From positions 4,123 through 68,122 of the forward strand of contig CAZHJZ010000004.1 in NCBI GenBank assembly GCA_964532495.1: 64,000 nucleotides of DNA. The letters are read 5' to 3'. The notes beneath the pieces are model-generated. The model was not told the DNA's origin and ran no database searches. It saw nothing but the letters and a program-made list of their open reading frames with translations. Below are positions 13,962 through 35,289 of the stretch, piece after piece (the first letter of the stretch is position 1; each line of letters starts with the position of its first letter). The position numbers and the translations under genes are program-made. Source of the stretch: an uncultured Candidatus Saccharibacteria bacterium. Its GTDB lineage: Bacteria > Patescibacteriota > Minisyncoccia > Phycocordibacterales > UBA9973.

Positions 13962-16331
13962 TTAATACTCTGAGCTACGAATGATAGTTTCTAGAAGGTC
14001 GATCGGATACATCTGAGTCGGCTCCGCAAGCGCTTGGTGATACAACACCGTAGATGGCGTTAACCCAGGAAGCGTGTTTACTTCGATTATTTTCACATTG
14101 CCAGTTTTTAATTCCAAGAATGCGTCGATACGGGCGTAGCCTTTTATGTTAATAGCGCCAGCAACATTTGCGATGCATTCGCGAGTCCATTCCAATTGCT
14201 TTGGCTTGATCAGCGACGCAGGCGGCGGCGTGATATTCACACCGGTACCTCCTTGGAATTTTTCTTCAACTGAAAGCACCGAACCCTCAGCAACGGTAAT
14301 GCTTGGGAACAGCGCTCTCGGCTTCTTCCCTCCTTCTTCCAAAACTCCAACAGTAACTTCTACCCAGCCGCTTTTCTTTGTATGTTTCAATTTGTTTCCA
14401 CGAACTCGTACAGAGTCCGTCGTAACGAATTCTTCCAAGATAAGTTCGTCGAGCTTTGATTGCGGCATCTCTACTGCTTCTAACTGATTGGTGAAAATTC
14501 CTTTTGGAATAGTAGGCGCAGCAGTTTTTGCATAAAGCACATATTTTTCAAGATCGTGAGCACTCATGAGGCGGACGATACCTGCCGAACATCCGTCAGC
14601 GCGAGGTTTGACTATCAAGCTATCGCTTCCTGCATCAGCGATGCATTTGTCCCAAACATCAGAATAGTTTGTTCTTTCATTCAGCTGCTGGATATTGAGT
14701 AGAAGGTGGTTAGCAACACTGACGCCTGGAATATGAAGATTTTTCAAAGTCTCATTGGTCTTCCATTTGTCCATGCACAAGATCGAAGTAGCGGCATCAG
14801 ATCCGTTGTATTTTACTTTACTCTTGGTGAGCATTGCTTGCAGCGTCCCATCTTCCCCAATGCCTCCGTGGAGGGCTAGGAAGACATATGGGCGGGTATG
14901 GATGAATTCTTTAAGAGAAGTACGCTCTGGCAAGAAAAATGGCTCTGTGGCGTCACCGTCTTCGAGAGACAGCTTGTACTTTACCTTTTCAGTAAGCGAG
15001 CCGATACGATCCATATCTTTGGATGCACGCTTGGCATTGGCAATGATTTCTTCAACGGTGTGGTTCAAAATAAGCGCATACGGCAATCGCCATACTTCGT
15101 TATTGAATCCAAGAAGATACGGTGTTGGCTCGTAGTTTTTGGACATGCGGAGCTTGAGCCAAACGTTTGTGCCGCTCATGAGCGATACTTGGCGTTCTGC
15201 AGTACTTCCCCCAAATAGAACAGCTACTGGCTTCCGATTAGTAATTTCCGATGTATTTTTTTCATATGGAATGCCATAGCGTCGGCAGGCGCTCTTTAAA
15301 ACATACGTCAAAAGATCTCGATGAGAAAATCCAATACGAGCCGACTGCTGGAAAAGGAAACTGTTCTGCTCCATTCCAGAAATAGGATTGAAGTCAGAGA
15401 ACCAAATATTTCCATCTGGCATAACCCAGCCATCGAAACGCGCGAAGTCGTGCATGCCAAGAATATTCCACAGCTGCTCAGCTTGGATCTGAATCTTTTC
15501 GATCACATCGTTTGGAAATCGTGGAGGACAATGATATGCCACTTGGCGAGACGGTAGATATTTTTTACGGAAGTCGAATATCTGATGTTCGCTGTAGTCC
15601 GCTTCGATCTCTGTCGGCAAAACTGCCACTCCCTGTCCAAATCTGTTTTCAAGAACGATGACAGTAAACTCGGTACCGATGGCAAATGGTTCGATCACTA
15701 CGCGAGTGTCCATGCGCTTCGAAAAAATATGTTCGGCACTTTGTAGAGCATTCTCAATCGTATCGACTGAAAACACGCCGATGCTTGATCCGCCAGTGGC
15801 GGGCTTTACGATAGCGCGAGTAATATTGTGTTTCTTGAAAAATGCTTTGACGAGCTGCTTGTGATCCTTTCCATAAATCTTGAGCACCAGCGACGGCAAT
15901 GTATAAAACCCATGCTCGGCGATCAATTCGTTCGCTTTGTGCTTATCGAATACTTTCTTGCAAGCGCTTTCCGGAGAACCGATGTGCGGAATATTATTTT
16001 TTTCCAAAAATGCCTGGATCACGCCATCTTCGCCAAATGTCCCGTGCATGACAGGAAAAGCGATATCTGTTGTCTTCAGCAATTTAATGAGCGCTTTCTC
16101 AGTAAGCGGCTTCCCTGTTTCTGCCAGCTTGAAATCAAAATCAGATGGAGTATTGCAATACAGCTGAGAGGGAGAAATATGAAATGCCTGACGCTTATGG
16201 TCAAAATAGATCGGCACAATTTCAATTCCTTCACCGCCAAGATGATCGAGCACTGATCGAGCCGAGTTAAGCGATATTCCGCGTTCGAGTGAAGGTCCGC
16301 CGCACAGTAATGATACTTTCATATTTTGCAA
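13962..16331 (-). CDS. ddl: tandem-fused D-alanine--D-alanine ligase (two complete Ddl/ATP-grasp modules, 789 aa)
   Basis: Module 1 has SLLCGGPSLERGISLNSARSV...VMHGTFGEDGVIQ...HIGS...KPATGGSSIGV...DFNPISGM. Module 2 has AVLFGGSTAERQVSLMSGT...ALHGGIGEDGTLQ...YNGSD...KPRADGCSAGIV...EVNTLPGLTPSTV. Confidence 0.85.
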   Translation of the reverse strand: MQNMKVSLLCGGPSLERGISLNSARSVLDHLGGEGIEIVPIYFDHKRQAFHISPSQLYCNTPSDFDFKLAETGKPLTEKALIKLLKTTDIAFPVMHGTFGEDGVIQAFLEKNNIPHIGSPESACKKVFDKHKANELIAEHGFYTLPSLVLKIYGKDHKQLVKAFFKKHNITRAIVKPATGGSSIGVFSVDTIENALQSAEHIFSKRMDTRVVIEPFAIGTEFTVIVLENRFGQGVAVLPTEIEADYSEHQIFDFRKKYLPSRQVAYHCPPRFPNDVIEKIQIQAEQLWNILGMHDFARFDGWVMPDGNIWFSDFNPISGMEQNSFLFQQSARIGFSHRDLLTYVLKSACRRYGIPYEKNTSEITNRKPVAVLFGGSTAERQVSLMSGTNVWLKLRMSKNYEPTPYLLGFNNEVWRLPYALILNHTVEEIIANAKRASKDMDRIGSLTEKVKYKLSLEDGDATEPFFLPERTSLKEFIHTRPYVFLALHGGIGEDGTLQAMLTKSKVKYNGSDAATSILCMDKWKTNETLKNLHIPGVSVANHLLLNIQQLNERTNYSDVWDKCIADAGSDSLIVKPRADGCSAGIVRLMSAHDLEKYVLYAKTAAPTIPKGIFTNQLEAVEMPQSKLDELILEEFVTTDSVRVRGNKLKHTKKSGWVEVTVGVLEEGGKKPRALFPSITVAEGSVLSVEEKFQGGTGVNITPPPASLIKPKQLEWTRECIANVAGAINIKGYARIDAFLELKTGNVKIIEVNTLPGLTPSTVLYHQALAEPTQMYPIDLLETIIRSSEY

Positions 16332-27926: not shown

Positions 27927-28415
27927 GTGAAAAAATGGAATGATGCCGACTTGGCTAAGTCAGTTAAAAATTCAAAAAGTATTAGGCAGGTTTTAGCGAA
28001 ACTATCTCTTGTGGAGGCTGGTGGAAACTACAGTCAAATCAAGCAAAGAATAATCGATCTTGGTTTAAATATTGACCATTTTCATGGCAAGGGATGGCGG
28101 ACAGGCTTACATATTCCCACAACAAAACCTAAACCATTATCGATGCTTTTAGTAGAAAACTCGAGTTACCAAAGCCATAAATTAAAAATTAGATTGTTCG
28201 CAGAAAATATTAAGAAACAATCTTGTGAATTATGCGGGTGGGCAAAGAAATCACTTGATGGTAGAATTCCAGTTGAGCTCGATCATGTAAATGGAGACCA
28301 TAGAGACAATAGGATTGGCAACTTACGAATCCTTTGTCCCAATTGCCATAGTTTGCAACCAACACATCGAGGTAAAAATATAGGAAAGAAAAGCGGAAAC
28401 GGGTCAGTGGCGTAA
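27927..28415 (+). CDS. HNH endonuclease
   Basis: C-terminal CELCGW...LDHVNGDHRDNRIGNLRILCPNCHS HNH/Zn motif. The GTG start is uncertain. The last 15 nt overlap tRNA-Leu(TAA). Confidence 0.7.
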   Translation: MKKWNDADLAKSVKNSKSIRQVLAKLSLVEAGGNYSQIKQRIIDLGLNIDHFHGKGWRTGLHIPTTKPKPLSMLLVENSSYQSHKLKIRLFAENIKKQSCELCGWAKKSLDGRIPVELDHVNGDHRDNRIGNLRILCPNCHSLQPTHRGKNIGKKSGNGSVA

Positions 28416-28484
28416 TTGGTAGCCGCAGCAGACTTAAAATTTGCCGGTCGCAAGACCATGCGGGTTCGATTCCCGCCTGACCCA
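28401..28484 (+). tRNA. tRNA-Leu(TAA), type II
   Basis: Acceptor GGGTCAG/CTGACCC, anticodon stem-loop GCAGA-CTTAAAA-TTTGC, a long variable arm, and T-arm GCGGG-TTCGATT-CCCGC. Confidence 0.85.
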
Positions 28485-28501
28485 CACAACAAAATAATAA
28501 A

Positions 28502-28583
28502 GCCGGGGTGGCGAAATTGGTAGACGCACTTGCCTTAGGAGCAAGCGAGGCAACTCATGGAGGTTCAAGTCCTCTCCCCGGCA
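28502..28583 (+). tRNA. tRNA-Leu(TAG), type II
   Basis: Acceptor GCCGGGG/CCCCGGC, anticodon stem-loop CTTGC-CTTAGGA-GCAAG, and a long variable arm. Confidence 0.85.
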
Positions 28584-28591
28584 CAACGATA

Positions 28592-29476
28592 ATGCACGAC
28601 GCAATTAAAAAACTCATCTTAGAAAATGAAAAGGATACTCGGGTTGCTCTGACCAAACAGTATCCTTTTCTTGTTATTCCCGTACTAGAAACAAAGCGAT
28701 TGATCAATAAACTGCGATACAATCTATCAAGCAGGTTCGATCTCAAACATTCGGACCCAGAACAAACCACGGCTTGGTTTAACATGACCGAACACTCTTC
28801 CCCGCTCTACCGTAAATACAACAAGCGCGAACTCGACGATGGCAAGATATTAAATATACAAAAAGCTATTCATTCGCTTGATGGCTTGGTGCTCGAACCA
28901 GGGCAGATTTTTTCGTTCTGGAAATTCGTCGGAAGAACTGGAGAGAAAAACGGCTTCTCGAGAGGCCTCGTATTATCAGATGGTAAATTGCTTGAGGATT
29001 TTGGTGGCGGGCTTTGCCAGCTTTCAAACCTCATTGCGTACATGTTTGCCTGTACAGAATGTACGTTTATTGAACGCAGGCACCATTCTCGTGACGTATT
29101 CCCTGACAGCAACAGAAGCGTCCCTTTTGCGAGCGGTGCTACCGTGTTTTACAATCTCATAGATCTTAAAGTACAAAATACCTACTCCTTCCCCATTCGC
29201 ATCAATCTTCGAACAACCGACACCCAACTTCGGGGCTCGCTTTCGGCGCCGCACCAGCTCGACTATTCTGTATCGCTGCAAGAACGCGATGCTGGATTTA
29301 TCAAATCGAAAAATTCCGGCAGCACCTATCGATACAACAAATTAGTGCGCGTATTTTACAAAAAAGGACTTCCTGATGGCAAAAAAGAAATCCTTCGAGA
29401 AGAGCCATTATGGGAAAATCTCGCTATAGTCATGTACCCTGATAGCCAGATCACGAGCCCCATCGAAACCACATAA
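28592..29476 (+). CDS. VanW family protein
   Basis: FSFWKFVGRTGEKNGFSRGL...DFGGGLCQLSNLIAYMF...ERRHHS matches the VanW core (GGG[VIL]CQ[VL]S). The ATG lies 9 nt after tRNA-Leu(TAG). Confidence 0.7.
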   Translation: MHDAIKKLILENEKDTRVALTKQYPFLVIPVLETKRLINKLRYNLSSRFDLKHSDPEQTTAWFNMTEHSSPLYRKYNKRELDDGKILNIQKAIHSLDGLVLEPGQIFSFWKFVGRTGEKNGFSRGLVLSDGKLLEDFGGGLCQLSNLIAYMFACTECTFIERRHHSRDVFPDSNRSVPFASGATVFYNLIDLKVQNTYSFPIRINLRTTDTQLRGSLSAPHQLDYSVSLQERDAGFIKSKNSGSTYRYNKLVRVFYKKGLPDGKKEILREEPLWENLAIVMYPDSQITSPIETT

Positions 29477-29545
29477 AACCCGTTCGATATTGAGTTTTTA
29501 GGATTTTAGTGTATACTTAGAAACGTTTTAGAAGAAAACAGACCA

Positions 29546-29618
29546 GCACCCGTAGCTCAGATGGTAGAGCAGCTCCCTTTTAAGGAGATGGTCGGAGGTT
29601 CGATCCCTCCCGGGCGCA
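29546..29618 (+). tRNA. tRNA-Lys(TTT)
   Basis: Anticodon loop CTTTTAA and T-arm GGAGG-TTCGATC-CCTCC. The acceptor has one A-C mismatch. Confidence 0.75.
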
Positions 29619-29770
29619 CACCCTGTGTGCGCAGCACACATACTAAATTGCGCGCCCGGAGCACTGTGCCTGCGCACAGTGCGTGAGGGATCGAAAGGGA
29701 TTTCGATGTCGCCGCTCTGGGCGACCGAAATCCACCCGCGGCGGTAGCCGAGATCCCTCTTAGGGAATAT
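29619..29770 (+). ncRNA. candidate structured RNA (GC-rich multi-hairpin element) co-transcribed after tRNA-Lys
   Basis: Three consecutive GC-rich hairpins: TGTGTGC-gca-GCACACA, GCACTGTGC-ctgc-GCACAGTGC and GAGGGATC...[GGATTTCG(at)GTCGCC-gctctg-GGCGAC-CGAAATCC]...GATCCCTC. An intrinsic terminator follows at 29800-29821. Confidence 0.3.
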
Positions 29771-29799
29771 GTCAATTTATACTTTATATCTCCAAATCC

Positions 29800-29821
29800 C
29801 CCTTACCCCATAAGGGTTTTT
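29800..29821 (+). terminator. rho-independent terminator
   Basis: ccctta-cccca-taaggg followed by ttttta. Confidence 0.5.
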
Positions 29822-29836
29822 ATCTATCCTCCTTAC

Positions 29837-29865
29837 TTGACTTTTCTACCAATATGGTGTATAAT
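29837..29865 (+). promoter_or_regulatory. strong sigma70 promoter
   Basis: TTGACT (29837-29842), a 17-nt spacer, then TATAAT (29860-29865). A leader hairpin AGGTGATT...AATCACCT follows. Confidence 0.55.
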
Positions 29866-29974
29866 GTATACAAGATCCTTAAGAACTGTTAGCTAGGTGA
29901 TTTGTGGGCAGAACAACTCGTTATGCCTAGTAATCACCTATTCCTAACTTAAATAAAACAAAAAAAACACGCAT

Positions 29975-30421
29975 ATGTCAGCACCAGCAGCAGCGGCAGA
30001 TCCGCACGCAAAAAAAGAACATCAAGACCCTAACCCAAAAACTACAATACTTAGACCATTAATGATATTGGTATCTATAGGTTTGTTGATATGGGCAGTT
30101 ACTGGAGGTTCTTCTAGTAACACCACCGGCACTATCAGTACTAATGGCAATACAACAATTATTGTTAAAGATTTATTACGGTATACGGAAACTGCAACAG
30201 TGACTATATCGCAAAGTACTACATTCAATTATACAGGTACAGATCACTTCTATACTTGCAGCAACGGCCGTGCACGTGTCACTACCGAAAAAAACACAAC
30301 CGGAATACTAAACGGTTGCGAATTTGAAGATAGAGATGTTAGCAGCCTTGACGACACCAGAATCTGGCGCATAGAGCCACTTTCAGGAACAGTAACCATT
30401 ACCTTAACTAAAAAAAACTAG
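29975..30421 (+). CDS. hypothetical secreted/membrane-anchored protein
   Basis: One N-terminal TM helix (LMILVSIGLLIWAV) and a Thr/Asn-rich linker. Confidence 0.35.
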   Translation: MSAPAAAADPHAKKEHQDPNPKTTILRPLMILVSIGLLIWAVTGGSSSNTTGTISTNGNTTIIVKDLLRYTETATVTISQSTTFNYTGTDHFYTCSNGRARVTTEKNTTGILNGCEFEDRDVSSLDDTRIWRIEPLSGTVTITLTKKN

Positions 30422-30425
30422 TGCG

Positions 30426-31457
30426 ATGAGCCACCAAGAACACAATCCCGACAAAATTGAAAACAAGGTTAGCGAATTTTTTAGCGGACTAAACGAATAC
30501 GTTCTTTCCGCCCTAAACATACTTGTTTCATTACTTTACTTCAACAATGTGTTAGCTTTGGCTGTACACTTCCTTCTTAACGCGGGCATTGCATATTTTT
30601 TTGCAACTTGGTTTGCCTCGTTATTGCATATTCCGCTTATGGAATCAATACCTGGACGACTGATACTTGTTGTACTTCAAATCGGCACGATATACCGCTC
30701 GTACGAAACCTGCATTACGGTGCCTACATACCATGGATATTTACTCCGAGTATTCGGAATAAATACCCACCTTACATTAAGAAGTGGTACTTGGCCCATG
30801 TTCCTCCACCCGCTATTCAGTATTGAGGCGCATGAGGTAGTAGATCAGCAATACAAGGCTGGCACGGTACCTCCAACAGTTATATCTGATAAGTCTAACT
30901 ACACATTCATAGTAGAGGGATTGATCCCATACCATGTAACAGAAGAAGACTCATCAGTGTTCACTAAGTCGGATGAAAAGGACATATTAAAGATGATTAA
31001 CCTGCGTGCAGTAAATGCCGCTATAAGCATCTTTAATCGAAACGAATACATCACCACCACCCCCGAAGAAAGCGAGATTCACAATATGGCTGAATTCAAC
31101 GAGTTCGTTTACTACGAAATCGGAACTGAAGCATTAAAGGAACGTGGAGTAACGGTGGATACGCCGATACTGACCTATGTGCTAACCGAAGCTACGAAGA
31201 ATGATTTCTCTCAAAAAACCAAAGCCCTTAACACGGTACTGGCAAATAAGAGCGTTGTTCTTGGACAAGCAAATGCACTAGTAGTGTACAAGCAACTTCT
31301 ACAAGATGCCGGTATGAAAATTTCCGACAGCGAAGCTGAACTCGCAGTTCAAAAAGCAATCAATGGCGTAAACATTTACGACTTTGGCGGCAAGGGCGGC
31401 GACGGAGGGGCAATCAAGCTACTCAACATAACGGCTGAAGGCTCATCTAAAAAATAG
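30426..31457 (+). CDS. hypothetical membrane protein
   Basis: Two or three N-terminal TM helices and a 250-aa domain of unknown function. Confidence 0.35.
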   Translation: MSHQEHNPDKIENKVSEFFSGLNEYVLSALNILVSLLYFNNVLALAVHFLLNAGIAYFFATWFASLLHIPLMESIPGRLILVVLQIGTIYRSYETCITVPTYHGYLLRVFGINTHLTLRSGTWPMFLHPLFSIEAHEVVDQQYKAGTVPPTVISDKSNYTFIVEGLIPYHVTEEDSSVFTKSDEKDILKMINLRAVNAAISIFNRNEYITTTPEESEIHNMAEFNEFVYYEIGTEALKERGVTVDTPILTYVLTEATKNDFSQKTKALNTVLANKSVVLGQANALVVYKQLLQDAGMKISDSEAELAVQKAINGVNIYDFGGKGGDGGAIKLLNITAEGSSKK

Positions 31458-31568
31458 CCAACGGCACTAGAAGATACACGAAGAAATAAACAGAAATAAA
31501 CACCAATGCACCAGCCTCAAAAGCTGGTGTATTTTTTTATCTCCAATGTAAATAATGAAAACAAAAAA

Positions 31569-31599: not shown

Positions 31600-31926
31600 C
31601 TAGTGTGGAAACGTGATCGTTGTACCTGGCGGGCCTTGTATGCCGAAGGTGTTAACGATGAGGCGCATGATACCGAATACTGAGACCATGATCACCAATC
31701 CTATGAGACCCCAGAGAAGGTGCTGCTTGCCGCTGGCAATTGATTTCTCTTCCCCGCTGCCTTGGTTCATAAGAAACTCTACTGCTCCCCAGATAAACAC
31801 GAGGAGGGCGAGAGACATCATGAACACGATGATCGGATCAATGATCTGAGTATTGAGGCGATAGATAAGCGTATCTATGCTTATCGCGTACGCACTATGA
31901 ATGCCGGTAAACCACCACGTAAACAT
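31600..31926 (-). CDS. small membrane protein, TrbC/VirB2-like two-helix module (paralog 1)
   Basis: IVFMMSLALLVFIWGAVEFLMNQGSGEEKSIASGKQHLLWGLIGLVIMVSVFGIMRLIVNTF. Confidence 0.4.
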   Translation of the reverse strand: MFTWWFTGIHSAYAISIDTLIYRLNTQIIDPIIVFMMSLALLVFIWGAVEFLMNQGSGEEKSIASGKQHLLWGLIGLVIMVSVFGIMRLIVNTFGIQGPPGTTITFPH

Positions 31927-31932
31927 AGTATT

Positions 31933-32313
31933 TTACTGACAACCAGGAGTGGTAACATCGTTGTCGATGACACAAGGAATCTGGTTCTGGTTAAGCTGTC
32001 CACCGCCGATACCGAGAGTTGACTGGAGGAATCCAACAAGACCCCAGATCGAAACGATAACGAAGAGACCAATAATACCGTAGAGGATGACCATCTTTGC
32101 CTTTCCACGTTCTTCTTCGTTTGACTTAGTAACAAAACTAACGACACCATATGAAACATACAACACGCCGAGGATGATCAAGATCGGCATCAAGTATCCG
32201 AGTACTTTCTGCACGATGTTCAACAACGCGAACAGCTGAGTTGCATTTTGAGCAAATGCGACAGCCGGTGTGAACGCAAGAGCGACTAGTCCTATCTTCT
32301 TCAAATTCTTCAT
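31933..32313 (-). CDS. small secreted membrane protein, TrbC/VirB2-like module (paralog 2)
   Basis: Signal peptide, then ILIILGVLYVSYGVVSFVTKSNEEERGKAKMVILYGIIGLFVIVSIWGLVGFL. Confidence 0.4.
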   Translation of the reverse strand: MKNLKKIGLVALAFTPAVAFAQNATQLFALLNIVQKVLGYLMPILIILGVLYVSYGVVSFVTKSNEEERGKAKMVILYGIIGLFVIVSIWGLVGFLQSTLGIGGGQLNQNQIPCVIDNDVTTPGCQ

Positions 32314-32404
32314 AATTGTGTATGTAAACTACTAATAATTACTAACCTAATAACATGCATATAGTATATCATACCCTGCCCCGTAAAAGGCAAGCGCTGC
32401 CTGT

Positions 32405-33388
32405 TTAAAATCCAAAGAGTGTTCGCGTGAATCCAACGAGACCCCAGACTGAAACAATGACAAACATGATAAGCACTCCCCACAACATAACTTGTTTGGA
32501 CTTCTTGCGCTCTTCCACTGAATCTGATGAGAGCACGTATTGAACGACTCCCCAGATGAAGTAGACCATGGCAAAGCTAAGTGCAATTGAAACGAGGAAG
32601 CGGTTGATAATGCAGGAAGCGGCGATGAATATATCGGCGAATTTTTTGATACTTACCGAACAGCCTGTCTTGTCGATATTTTGATTGGCTGTTTTGCCGG
32701 CATTATATAGATCGGCGTTGAGATCGGTATATGATTTATTTGGATCATAAATATCAAAACCGATCTTACTATTTGCATTCTGAGCAGCAGTAGAGGCCTT
32801 TGTATTGCCAGCCTGTGCCTGCGAACTGATCCATTGGTTGTAAATAGAAGGATTTGGAAGTGAGTTGTTCAAATACAATCCATTATAGTTTGCCGCACCG
32901 GCATCGTATGATCCGGAACTGTATGCGTTGCTATTGCTCTCTGATGTTCCATTATAAATACCTGGTGCTTGGTTTGCCGCGTCAAAATTCACATTGAAGC
33001 TGTCGATACCTCCTTGGTTTGTGGCTGCATCGCTGCTCGCCTGCGTGCCGTTGAAAACTGTAGAGTTCTGATTTGAGGCGCTTGTATTATTGCTTGTGTT
33101 AGCGGCACTGCCCTGGTTTACTGATGCGTCGCTATTGGCTTGAGTGCCATCGTGTATGCTTGTATTGTCAGCAGCACCTTGGTTCTGAGCACTTGTATTC
33201 GTATCTGATGTACCAGTATAGATATCGGAGTTCTGGTTAGTTGCATTGTTATTTACTTGAGTATTATCATTTGCTCCCTGAGTCTGCGAACTGCCGTTTG
33301 GATCATAGTATTGAGCAAAAGCTCCGCTTGGTACAACCAAGGCGACCAATATCAGTGCTGCTATTATTTTGTGGCTGATGTGGTTCAT
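32405..33388 (-). CDS. secreted N/T/Q/S-rich low-complexity protein with C-terminal TrbC/VirB2-like module (paralog 3)
   Basis: Signal peptide, a ~200-aa Asn/Thr/Gln-rich region, then FLVSIALSFAMVYFIWGVVQYVLSSDSVEERKKSKQVMLWGVLIMFVIVSVWGLVGF. Confidence 0.4.
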   Translation of the reverse strand: MNHISHKIIAALILVALVVPSGAFAQYYDPNGSSQTQGANDNTQVNNNATNQNSDIYTGTSDTNTSAQNQGAADNTSIHDGTQANSDASVNQGSAANTSNNTSASNQNSTVFNGTQASSDAATNQGGIDSFNVNFDAANQAPGIYNGTSESNSNAYSSGSYDAGAANYNGLYLNNSLPNPSIYNQWISSQAQAGNTKASTAAQNANSKIGFDIYDPNKSYTDLNADLYNAGKTANQNIDKTGCSVSIKKFADIFIAASCIINRFLVSIALSFAMVYFIWGVVQYVLSSDSVEERKKSKQVMLWGVLIMFVIVSVWGLVGFTRTLFGF

Positions 33389-33390
33389 AG

Positions 33391-34059
33391 TTATGCCATG
33401 AGGGCTTCAATAGTTGCCTTAATAACAGTGGCGATCATCCATGCGCCCAAGAGAATACCTGCACCGATCAATGTATATAAAAATCGCGTCTTTGCCTTTT
33501 CCAGCTTCTCGCTGTTTCCTCGCGCAAGAACAAACATGAGACCGGAATAAATAATGAATGCGGCAACGATTGGAATAGCGATCTTGAGAATAAGACCGAG
33601 AACTGAAGCAATGAAAGATCCGAAGTCTGAAACATTGATAGGATTTTGAATCTTGCCAACGCCGTTCATTGCGGCCAAACTATTTCCATTCCCATTTCCA
33701 CCAGGAGCTGGAGCCACTCCACCGGGAGCAGGAGCAATGCCTCCTGGCGCTGGAGCTGCGTTAAAATTATTCACCTGCATCTGAGAAGCTGCTGACGGTG
33801 TGGGATTTGTATTGAGCGAAGTACTATGACTATTGGTAGATGTCTGAGATCCGGCAGGAGCTTGCGTGCCATTCAACGGAGCAGCAGGACCTGCGCCGGG
33901 AGCAGTTGTTACAGGAGTAGCTGTGTTGTTGGTCGGCTGTGCCGTATGGACTGTCGTAGTATTGACTGCGGGAAATCCGTTCTGAGCAAAAACAGTAATA
34001 CCAACAGCAGAAACTGCGACAAATGCGATACTGATAATTAAATAGTGAATTTTTTTCAT
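33391..34059 (-). CDS. secreted Pro/Gly/Ala-rich protein with C-terminal TrbC/VirB2-like module (paralog 4)
   Basis: Signal peptide, APAPGG repeats, then IAIPIVAAFIIYSGLMFVLARGNSEKLEKAKTRFLYTLIGAGILLGAWMIATVI. Confidence 0.4.
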   Translation of the reverse strand: MKKIHYLIISIAFVAVSAVGITVFAQNGFPAVNTTTVHTAQPTNNTATPVTTAPGAGPAAPLNGTQAPAGSQTSTNSHSTSLNTNPTPSAASQMQVNNFNAAPAPGGIAPAPGGVAPAPGGNGNGNSLAAMNGVGKIQNPINVSDFGSFIASVLGLILKIAIPIVAAFIIYSGLMFVLARGNSEKLEKAKTRFLYTLIGAGILLGAWMIATVIKATIEALMA

Positions 34060-34074
34060 AGGATAATGGTTAAC

Positions 34075-35289
34075 TTACAAGAAACTACTATATTCGCCGG
34101 TGACGCCAAACGCTGCTAATATTGTTTTAACTACCAATACTGCGATAAGAATAATGATTACTCCAATTGCTACGTTTATAAAAATGCCTTTTGCCTTTCC
34201 TCGCGCTTCCTCGCTTGCACCATTAGTAAGGAAGAGAAATCCTGCATATGCAAACATGCCAGCACCAATAGGAATGGTCATATAAATAATCCAGGTCATT
34301 CCTCTATTGATGAGAACAACAATCTCAGGCCACCCGCAACGAGATTGACTTGAACGCCCATCGCAAGGAACGAGTCCGCCTGAAAGATCTGGTGCTTTGT
34401 CAAAAAGGGCTTTTATTCCTCCTGCATTTTTTGGAGCAACAGTAACTACGGGAGCACCTCCCTGGGATCCACTGCTCGAAGAAGAACCGAAGTTCCCGAA
34501 AGCGTAGAGATTTAGCTCGGTATCGGTCAAATCATACCGTATGGTTGCAAGGTCAATAATAGATCCAGTTGTATCAACCACTAGCCCAGAGCTATTGGTA
34601 GGTACGGTAAATGAAAGTGTCTGTGGTGCACTAGCATCATATTGTCGTGTGCCGAAGTTTTGAATTTCTTCTCCATAGAGCGAGTTTGCACTACTGGTGT
34701 AGCTAAATACAAAATTCACATCGTCGTCATGTGTAGGATTGCCACTGATTGTAAACGTTACTGTCATCCCATCTGAACTTATCGCCTTAGAAACTGTCAA
34801 TCCATTCACCACCATGCCGGAAGGACCGCCTGCAATACCAGCGGGGGTAGTGAAACTGCCAGTATAGTAAGCAAGCCCATTCGTATCTTCGATAGAGTAG
34901 CCATATTGTGTTGCGGGCAAAATACCGACACTGTTGTACGGAACATCAAACTCCATTCGAGTCTGGGTGTTTGGAATGGTATTGTCTGCACGAATAGCCA
35001 AGGTGCCAAGTTGATGTCTCTCTGTTGGATCTGACACTGGCCACCAAAATCCTTGGAATGTAATCTGGTCAGGAGATGATCCAATTGCATAAAACTTGTA
35101 GATGAAATCTGTATTTGCTTGAGCTGGTGTTCCTCCTGGTCCGTCTGGAGTAACAATAACCAAGTTCCCTGTTTGAGCATGCGAGCTGCTAACCAGTCCG
35201 AACATAGCAACAAAAACAATCGCAAGAATTGTTGCAACAATCAAACGCTGTTTCTTTGAAAAAATAGTAGTGAATATGTGCGCCTTCAT
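34075..35289 (-). CDS. secreted protein with large N-terminal beta-rich domain, CxxxxxxxC motif and C-terminal TrbC/VirB2-like module (paralog 5)
   Basis: CDGRSSQSRCGW, then IIYMTIPIGAGMFAYAGFLFLTNGASEEARGKAKGIFINVAIGVIIILIAVLVV. Confidence 0.4.
   Translation of the reverse strand: MKAHIFTTIFSKKQRLIVATILAIVFVAMFGLVSSSHAQTGNLVIVTPDGPGGTPAQANTDFIYKFYAIGSSPDQITFQGFWWPVSDPTERHQLGTLAIRADNTIPNTQTRMEFDVPYNSVGILPATQYGYSIEDTNGLAYYTGSFTTPAGIAGGPSGMVVNGLTVSKAISSDGMTVTFTISGNPTHDDDVNFVFSYTSSANSLYGEEIQNFGTRQYDASAPQTLSFTVPTNSSGLVVDTTGSIIDLATIRYDLTDTELNLYAFGNFGSSSSSGSQGGAPVVTVAPKNAGGIKALFDKAPDLSGGLVPCDGRSSQSRCGWPEIVVLINRGMTWIIYMTIPIGAGMFAYAGFLFLTNGASEEARGKAKGIFINVAIGVIIILIAVLVVKTILAAFGVTGEYSSFL

Follow-up and report, generated by a model that had tools for sequence, protein, structure and literature searches.

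The window analysed here is a 64,000-nt stretch of a contig from an uncultured Candidatus Saccharibacteria bacterium. It is ordinary chromosome, with genes for IF-2, RbfA, GyrA, TopA, ClpB, HisRS and similar proteins. An ORF of 789 aa (13962-16331, minus strand), located beside the alanine racemase gene, has two matches to the N-terminal and two to the C-terminal domain of D-Ala-D-Ala ligase, and looks like a tandem fused Ddl. A tRNA-Lys(UUU) gene, identified by both ARAGORN and Rfam, lies on the plus strand at 29546-29618/9. It does not encode CCA and includes an A3.C70 mismatch (29548/29614). Upstream of the tRNA is a promoter-like site, TTGAGT-16-TATACT (29490-29517, plus strand), and the same sequence is present in L002, a Saccharibacteria MAG that is the closest genome. 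The tRNA is followed directly by a GC-rich element at 29619-29770, and then by a hairpin, CCCTTA-CCCCA-TAAGGG, with a T5 tract (29800-29821, plus strand). This hairpin is the likely terminator of the tRNA-Lys/trailer transcript, and is homologous to a hairpin upstream of a promoter in the relative L029.

No run of at least four T was found between 29619 and 29799, in agreement with the original prediction that T-tracts are missing until a separate terminator is reached. The same prediction held that the element is co-transcribed with tRNA-Lys, which is reasonable given the promoter-like site upstream and the lack of a terminator before 29800, and that it is released by 3′ processing. The latter would be consistent with the gene content of the window, where CCA is encoded in none of the eight tRNA genes, an arrangement that fits endonucleolytic 3′ processing. 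With no terminator ahead of position 29800, transcription of tRNA-Lys probably runs on passively through the element, giving a 3′ trailer of ~200 nt. Over the 155 nt that follow the tRNA, the trailers of the other seven tRNAs in the window have a GC content of 0.31-0.46, tRNA-Lys being the sole exception, and terminator-type hairpins are visible within about 40 nt of tRNA-Tyr and tRNA-Asn.

The GC content of 29619-29770 is 0.65, as compared with 0.43 for the whole window, and is the highest of any 150-nt interval. The element is also the GC-richest non-coding patch (0.66 in its best 80 nt), most intergenic regions overall having values of 0.18-0.45. The surrounding genome had been described as AT-rich, which is correct in a relative sense only, the window as such being 43% GC. 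The minimum free energy (MFE) of the element is -74.4 kcal/mol, versus -51.8 +/- 3.8 kcal/mol for 200 dinucleotide shuffles (z -5.9). On the minus strand, folding is nearly as strong (z -5.1) because the stems are near-perfect Watson-Crick palindromes. All pairs in the robust stems (7, 9, 8, 8+6 and 4 bp) are of the Watson-Crick type, with zero G.U pairs. As judged by GC content, folding energy and position, the element is indeed a GC-rich multi-hairpin structure between tRNA-Lys and a terminator.

Each of the four stems named in the original prediction (7 bp, 9 bp, an 8-bp outer stem and a 14-bp bulged stem) was found. Hairpin 1 (29624-29640) is a 7-bp perfect palindrome, TGTGTGC-GCA-GCACACA, formed by 29624-29630 and 29634-29640. 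In an alternative 8-bp pairing of 29614-29621 with 29625-29632, the last bases of tRNA-Lys are used. Hairpin 3 is a 9-bp perfect palindrome, GCACTGTGC-CTGC-GCACAGTGC, in which 29661-29669 pairs with 29674-29682. The outer stem of 8 bp is formed by 29685-29692 and 29752-29759, and inside it lies hairpin 5 (29698-29733), a 14-bp bulged stem of 8 + 6 bp with a 2-nt bulge and a 6-nt loop (29698-29705 and 29708-29713 paired with 29720-29733). A small hairpin of 4 bp, CGGC-GGTA-GCCG (29739-29750), was absent from the earlier list of stems. As judged by blastn-short, the element is single-copy within the 64-kb window.

The element is not a known RNA. Rfam 15 gave no non-tRNA match at the gathering score in the window, and a search with both gathering and E-value thresholds of the window region and of the corresponding trailers in two further Patescibacteria loci described below (L003 and L014) gave nothing, which supports the placing of the element outside known RNA families. 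The sole weak match, to rpfG RNA (RF03023) at 29633-29718, had 24.4 bits and E = 0.005 in a 701-nt search. It was rejected, as the gathering score of this family is 75.9, and unrelated GC-rich control DNA gives junk matches of ~25 bits to other families. Neither a tRNA nor a tmRNA was detected in the element by ARAGORN. A comparison by eye with the consensus sequences of group II intron domain V, dif, parS and CRP sites gave no match.

Searches for homologues were likewise negative. A 20-mer scan of JGI metagenome contigs returned only two chance matches, both inside high-GC coding DNA, and pattern scans of viral contigs gave no match to the tRNA-Lys 3′ end or to any segment of the element. 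Nothing meaningful was obtained with blastn against phage and plasmid collections. The 51-aa spurious translation had only low-complexity matches among 1.84 billion representative proteins. A covariance model built from the single sequence found only the element itself in the window and 23 related loci (167 kb). Among relatives of the VanW protein encoded next to tRNA-Lys (57-69% identity), none was followed by tRNA-Lys, and near the pilin relatives tRNA-Lys was not within reach.

Comparison with L002 defined the left boundary of the element. The two genomes are 98% identical over 28414-29620, and the match breaks off precisely where tRNA-Lys ends. In L002, the tRNA is followed only by a short terminator hairpin and then by a different gene, the element being absent. 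Synteny returns at the terminator of a pilin operon near 31560, and a 108-aa pilin is 71% identical between the two. The suggestion that the element is a conserved novel small RNA gene was not borne out, and failed by the refuting condition set in the original prediction: the closest genome has no such element at its orthologous locus, the collections searched gave no homologue, and covariation could not be demonstrated.

The interval between these points is inverted relative to related genomes. In L029, whose pilin gene has 83% nucleotide identity, the pilin gene and the next gene downstream share one direction, and the upstream hairpin, the -35 and -10 boxes and the opening codons (MSAPA...) of the latter can be aligned to 29796-29990 of the window. 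L002, L023 and L027 are arranged like L029, and their proteins are mutually homologous. In the window, the unit points the opposite way and abuts tRNA-Lys. Therefore, a segment of ~1.8 kb (about 29771-31555), which includes the hairpin, the promoter, genes for proteins of 148 and 343 aa and their terminator, has been inverted in this lineage relative to L002, L023, L027 and L029. The left junction of the inverted segment is occupied by the element. No inverted repeats of at least 10 nt were found between the two ends of the segment, which argues against a site-specific invertible switch.

The 148-aa gene in the inverted segment is preceded by a strong promoter, TTGACT-17-TATAAT (29837-29865, plus strand); L029 has homologous promoter and first-codon sequences. 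The leader of ~110 nt (29866-29974, plus strand) differs from that of L029 and includes a hairpin, TAGGTGATT ... AATCACCTA, at about 29893-29932. No detectable homologues were found for the 148-aa and 343-aa ORFs (29975-31457, plus strand), for which the promoter and first codons alone match L029; for the 343-aa protein there was no homologue at all, and PHROGs gave nothing for the neighbouring ORFs. The counterpart proteins in relatives are 532-618 aa long and share 24-31% identity with one another. The region 29975-31457 is a very fast-evolving membrane or surface gene that adjoins six T4SS_pilin-like genes at 31600-35289.

From 29585 on, the window sequence recurs base for base in L001, a Logan assembly made independently for the same organism, and this holds for the 3′ part of the tRNA, the element and the downstream genes; hence the element is not an assembler artefact. 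The L001 contig starts at 29585, which is inside tRNA-Lys and about one k-mer before a C/T difference at 29614, and this suggests that both alleles are present in the sample. The tRNA-Lys of L002 has U70 and a normal A3-U70 pair, versus C70 in the window copy. The infB flank is only 80% identical to L002, versus 98% for 28414-29620, while in a conspecific JGI contig (L028) infB is 98% identical and 28401-28670 only 93%. This pattern suggests that 28414-29620 could be either a recent recombination or transfer with tRNAs as anchors, or a chimeric assembly join. The interval comprises two tRNA-Leu genes, VanW and tRNA-Lys, and both of its boundaries lie inside tRNA genes. Recombination or strain mixing may lie behind the join inside tRNA-Lys and, along with it, the A3.C70 mismatch. 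The link between the 3′ part of the tRNA and the element is unaffected, and is confirmed by L001. Nearby, tRNA-Cys and tRNA-Leu are separated by a free-standing HNH endonuclease ORF of 162 aa (27927-28415, plus strand; phrog_10822, E 8e-43). L002 and L028, in which the two tRNAs stand about 25 nt apart, lack this ORF, and it looks like a strain-specific insertion of the mobile homing-endonuclease type.

Words of the tRNA-Lys 3′ end reappear in the trailer in both orientations. The source unit, TTCGATCCCTCCCGGGCGCACA, extends from the T-loop to the 3′ end of tRNA-Lys (29599-29620, plus strand). An anti-acceptor segment, TGCGCGCCCGGAG (29649-29661, plus strand), is an imperfect reverse complement of the acceptor 3′ strand, with 10 of 11 positions complementary at 29649-29659. 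An anti-T-arm segment, CGTGAGGGATCGAA (29682-29695, plus strand), is complementary at 13 of 14 positions to TTCGATCCCTCCCG in the T-loop and T-stem 3′ strand of tRNA-Lys. Hairpin 3 is located between these two segments. A direct copy of the T-stem 3′ strand, GATCCCTC (29752-29759, plus strand), pairs with 29685-29692; its analogue is an 18-nt direct copy in L003, and the window copy, at only 8 nt, is at chance level taken alone.

The enrichment was assessed with 6-mers shared with the 37-nt tRNA-Lys 3′ part. These cover 60 of 154 positions of the element (about 40%), 27 in forward and 33 in reverse orientation, as compared with 16.5 +/- 9.3 in shuffled controls, none of which (0/1000) attained 60. 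The tRNA-Lys 5′ part and the terminators nearby showed no such enrichment, nor did six of the seven further tRNAs of the window. The seventh, tRNA-Asn, shows some enrichment, and its T-arm is nearly identical to that of tRNA-Lys. A tRNA-Lys(CUU)-like 5′ half at 29733-29766, considered on the basis of gapped alignments, did not rise above the shuffle background and was discarded.

The trailer is also predicted to compete with the folding of tRNA-Lys. Neither this competition, nor the tRNA-derived words, nor the inversion junction figured in the original prediction. A duplex of the tRNA-Lys 3′ part with the trailer has an energy of -43.4 kcal/mol, versus -30.2 +/- 3.6 kcal/mol for shuffled trailers (2/500 attained the value) and -24 to -33 kcal/mol for the 3′ ends of other tRNAs against the same trailer. 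For the whole precursor, the MFE is -109.2 kcal/mol, versus -103.7 kcal/mol for the cloverleaf plus a separately folded trailer, and in the MFE fold the T-arm and acceptor 3′ strand of tRNA-Lys are paired to the trailer, not in the cloverleaf. The predicted probability of the acceptor stem falls to 0.02 once the precursor reaches 29660 and that of the T-arm to 0.00 by 29700, all precursor folds being thermodynamic predictions that ignore tRNA tertiary structure, co-transcriptional kinetics and fast processing.

A screen of 18 tRNA genes from the window and from fetched Patescibacteria loci, in which each tRNA 3′ end was compared with its own trailer for complementarity, identified inverted copies of the tRNA's own 3′ end downstream of three: tRNA-Lys of the window, tRNA-Ser(GCU) of L003 and tRNA-Leu(UAG) of L014. 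The insert in L003 (2789-2944) opens with a small hairpin and an anti-acceptor segment; an 8-bp hairpin then leads to a 17-nt inverted copy, after which come a long hairpin and an 18-nt direct copy. The order of parts is that of the window, the inverted copy spans the T-loop-to-acceptor block, and the anti-segments match the tRNA of L003 itself, which is different from tRNA-Lys. The L003 trailer has an MFE of -75.0 kcal/mol (z -7.6), and 14-bp perfect inverted repeats surround a core of ~70 nt, with an 18-nt direct repeat of the tRNA block.

In L014, a palindrome at 2717-2803 has the tRNA in its left arm. The arms are ~43 nt long, with two parts that are 86-92% complementary, and the centre is the loop of a terminator. 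The palindrome spans the T-loop, the tRNA end and an A-rich non-functional spacer up to the loop of the terminator hairpin. This terminator, which has a T-run, stands between the tRNA and the inverted copy, so transcripts of the tRNA would not include the copy. The T-loop is where the copied block starts at each of the three loci, and the junction between plus and minus copies is centred on whichever hairpin comes first after the tRNA (in L014, the terminator loop). The three elements have no internal sequence in common. Inserts are absent from L020, which has the same tRNA-Leu as L014, and from L005 and L010, in which, as in L003, tRNA-Ser(GCU) lies upstream of VanW, though the tRNA sequences differ from that of L003. 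A rough calculation put the chance of finding an inverted 14-mer match within 500 nt, with one mismatch or none, at about 1e-3 per tRNA; therefore, three of 18 is far beyond chance.

These observations can be accounted for at the level of DNA. About an even chance is given to the element being a scar of template switching or inverted triplication that was seeded by tRNA hairpins and is passively co-transcribed. The natural hairpins at the tRNA-Lys 3′ end, namely the T-arm and the hairpin just past the gene, would have seeded the event. Repeated template switching, through snap-back or inverted duplication-triplication, would then have copied the unit in alternating orientation, and the palindromic junctions would have been remodelled later. 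The event would have occurred at the edge of the ~1.8-kb segment whose orientation is reversed in this lineage. It has been documented that short inverted repeats at replication forks give rise to inverted triplications, the palindromic junctions of which are remodelled later (PMC4689423). The tRNA-derived words, the complementarity to the tRNA 3′ half, the absence from L002, the place at an inversion junction and the comparable structures at two further tRNAs are observed; the template-switch mechanism, the transcription of the element and its lack of a selected function are inferred.

Several findings expected of such a scar were made. One local unit is copied in alternating orientation next to its source, as seen in the word enrichment of the window, in the + - + copies of 18, 17 and 18 nt in L003, and in the palindrome of L014. 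Unit boundaries and junction centres coincide with pre-existing hairpins at all three loci. The state is derived and lineage-specific, as the inserts are absent from L002, from L020 as compared with L014, and from L005 and L010 as compared with L003. GC-richness and stable hairpins would arise because GC-rich words derived from the tRNA were copied in alternating orientation, and perfect Watson-Crick stems without G.U pairs, together with equal folding of both strands, point to DNA-level palindromes rather than to an old RNA. A rearrangement scar explains the words in two orientations, the strand symmetry, the GC content, the singleton status, the presence and absence among relatives, the L014 spacer and the position at a junction.

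The likeness to inverted triplications and tandem inversion duplications (ODIRA, snap-back, quasi-palindrome switching) lies in the + - + orientation of the copies, in a unit whose limits are short palindromes that were there beforehand (the T-arm and the hairpin that directly follows the tRNA), and in palindromic junctions that were apparently remodelled secondarily (PMC4689423). The differences are that the copies here measure tens of nucleotides, not kilobases, that a tRNA-gene 3′ end serves as the unit, and that the element has extra perfect hairpins within the inverted copy; moreover, what is seen is the presumed product and not the process. Some features sit less well with a scar. Two hairpins are not predicted by a simple inverted triplication: the extra one that separates the anti-acceptor from the anti-T-arm segment in the window and L003, and the long one that follows the inverted copy and precedes the second direct copy. 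A useless insert of 150 nt is unexpected in a streamlined genome, and the finding of such copies at three of 18 tRNAs could mean selective retention. The left junction, being inside tRNA-Lys, could also be affected by strain mixing in the assembly.

The main rival explanation, possible though rather doubtful, is that the trailer RNA is functional, either as a stable small RNA of the 3′ETS type freed by 3′ processing or as a cis-acting "anti-tRNA" switch. In the latter case, segments 29649-29661 and 29682-29695 would sequester the acceptor and T-arm 3′ strands of the tRNA, or would themselves be sequestered by the tRNA-mimicking segments 29619-29633 and 29752-29759, and so tune the maturation of tRNA-Lys. 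GC-rich islands in AT-rich genomes are a frequent sign of structured RNAs, and known 3′ETS RNAs are short and act through Hfq. Functional tRNA 3′ETS RNAs have been described in E. coli (Lalaouna 2015, as cited in PMC9514646), and known ones are reported to be conserved in Enterobacteriaceae (PMC9514646). Like E. coli 3′ETS-leuZ, the element lies immediately 3′ of a tRNA, with no terminator discernible between them, in the same predicted transcript, and would be freed by 3′ processing; the plausible transcription unit from the promoter-like site to the terminator, the duplex energy beyond that of shuffled trailers, the loss of the cloverleaf in precursor folds and the same order of parts in L003, with anti-segments fitted to its own tRNA, all favour a function. 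Unlike the known 3′ETS RNAs, it is a singleton of about 150-200 nt that is complementary to its own tRNA and has no known targets, and it is not conserved at the orthologous tRNA-Lys locus of L002 or elsewhere among the loci searched. The palindromic stems without G.U pairs and the similar folding of both strands also speak against a functional RNA, as do the location of the L014 copy past a T-run terminator, outside the tRNA transcript, and the purely thermodynamic nature of the folds. It is improbable, more so than a functional trailer in general but not negligibly so, that the elements of the window tRNA-Lys and the L003 tRNA-Ser belong to an undescribed class of Patescibacteria tRNA 3′ trailers, with self-matched anti-acceptor and anti-T-arm segments, a hairpin between them and then a tRNA-mimicking strand able to sequester these segments, for bistable cis-acting control of tRNA folding or 3′ maturation. 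Such a bistable device would fit the window and L003, but not L014.

A remnant or miniature mobile element that targets tRNA 3′ ends, either a degraded integrative element with att-like copies or a MITE-like element with terminal inverted repeats derived from the tRNA, is similarly unlikely. T-loop-class tyrosine integrases reportedly cross over in the T-loop (Williams 2002), and the copied block begins there in three of three cases. As in att sites of this class, the block extends from the T-loop to the tRNA 3′ end, and synteny with L002 breaks exactly at this point, with C70 in place of U70 as if incoming DNA had supplied the 3′ end. The polymorphic presence of the inserts, and the 14-bp inverted repeats and 18-nt direct repeat in L003, would also suit a mobile element. 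However, no integrase, transposase, relaxase, other recombinase or T4SS ATPase domain was detected by Pfam in ~39 larger ORFs spread across the window, and no second copy of the tRNA-Lys 3′ end or distal direct repeat of meaningful length is present there. The main and longest copies are in inverted orientation, no more than 80 nt away from the tRNA, whereas att repeats would be direct. No viral contig scanned carries the tRNA-Lys 3′ end or a segment of the element, the element occurs only once in the window, and the three elements share no internal sequence. Terminal inverted repeats of an inner module are seen (8-bp GAGGGATC/GATCCCTC in the window and 14-bp perfect in L003). Both pairs of repeats were copied from the tRNA next to them, and a clear target-site duplication was not seen. 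An integrated island, an oriT and an invertible segment were rejected for want of such domains in the scanned ORFs and of inverted repeats of at least 10 nt at the segment ends. With REP/BIME, ERIC, Correia and RPE (MITE-like) repeats, the element shares a size of about 100-150 nt, an intergenic location, strong palindromes and the ability to fold on both strands. Those families have several copies per genome and a common consensus, whereas only one copy of the element exists in 64 kb, and about 100 kb of related loci contain no relative; an array of REP-like palindromes, the alternative raised in the original prediction, is accordingly not what is found. Very little credence can be given to a divergent member of a known RNA family, such as rpfG RNA, or to an assembly artefact. 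The rpfG match and the start of the L001 contig inside the tRNA might hint at one or the other, but the match is at junk level, far under its gathering score, and L001 reproduces the region base for base.

The element is therefore more likely a transcribed DNA rearrangement scar than a conserved small RNA gene; if so, a GC-rich, strongly folding island beside a tRNA in an AT-rich genome is insufficient to call such a gene. If the element is retained and expressed, it would represent a new coupling of a tRNA to a self-complementary trailer able to block its folding. The frequency with which tRNAs carry inverted copies of their own 3′ ends, three of 18, is high enough to merit a systematic census. 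If the scar reading is true, the element would be a small-scale example of tRNA-gene hairpins seeding inverted duplications, and tRNA hairpins would mark the limits of structural variants in the streamlined genomes of episymbionts.
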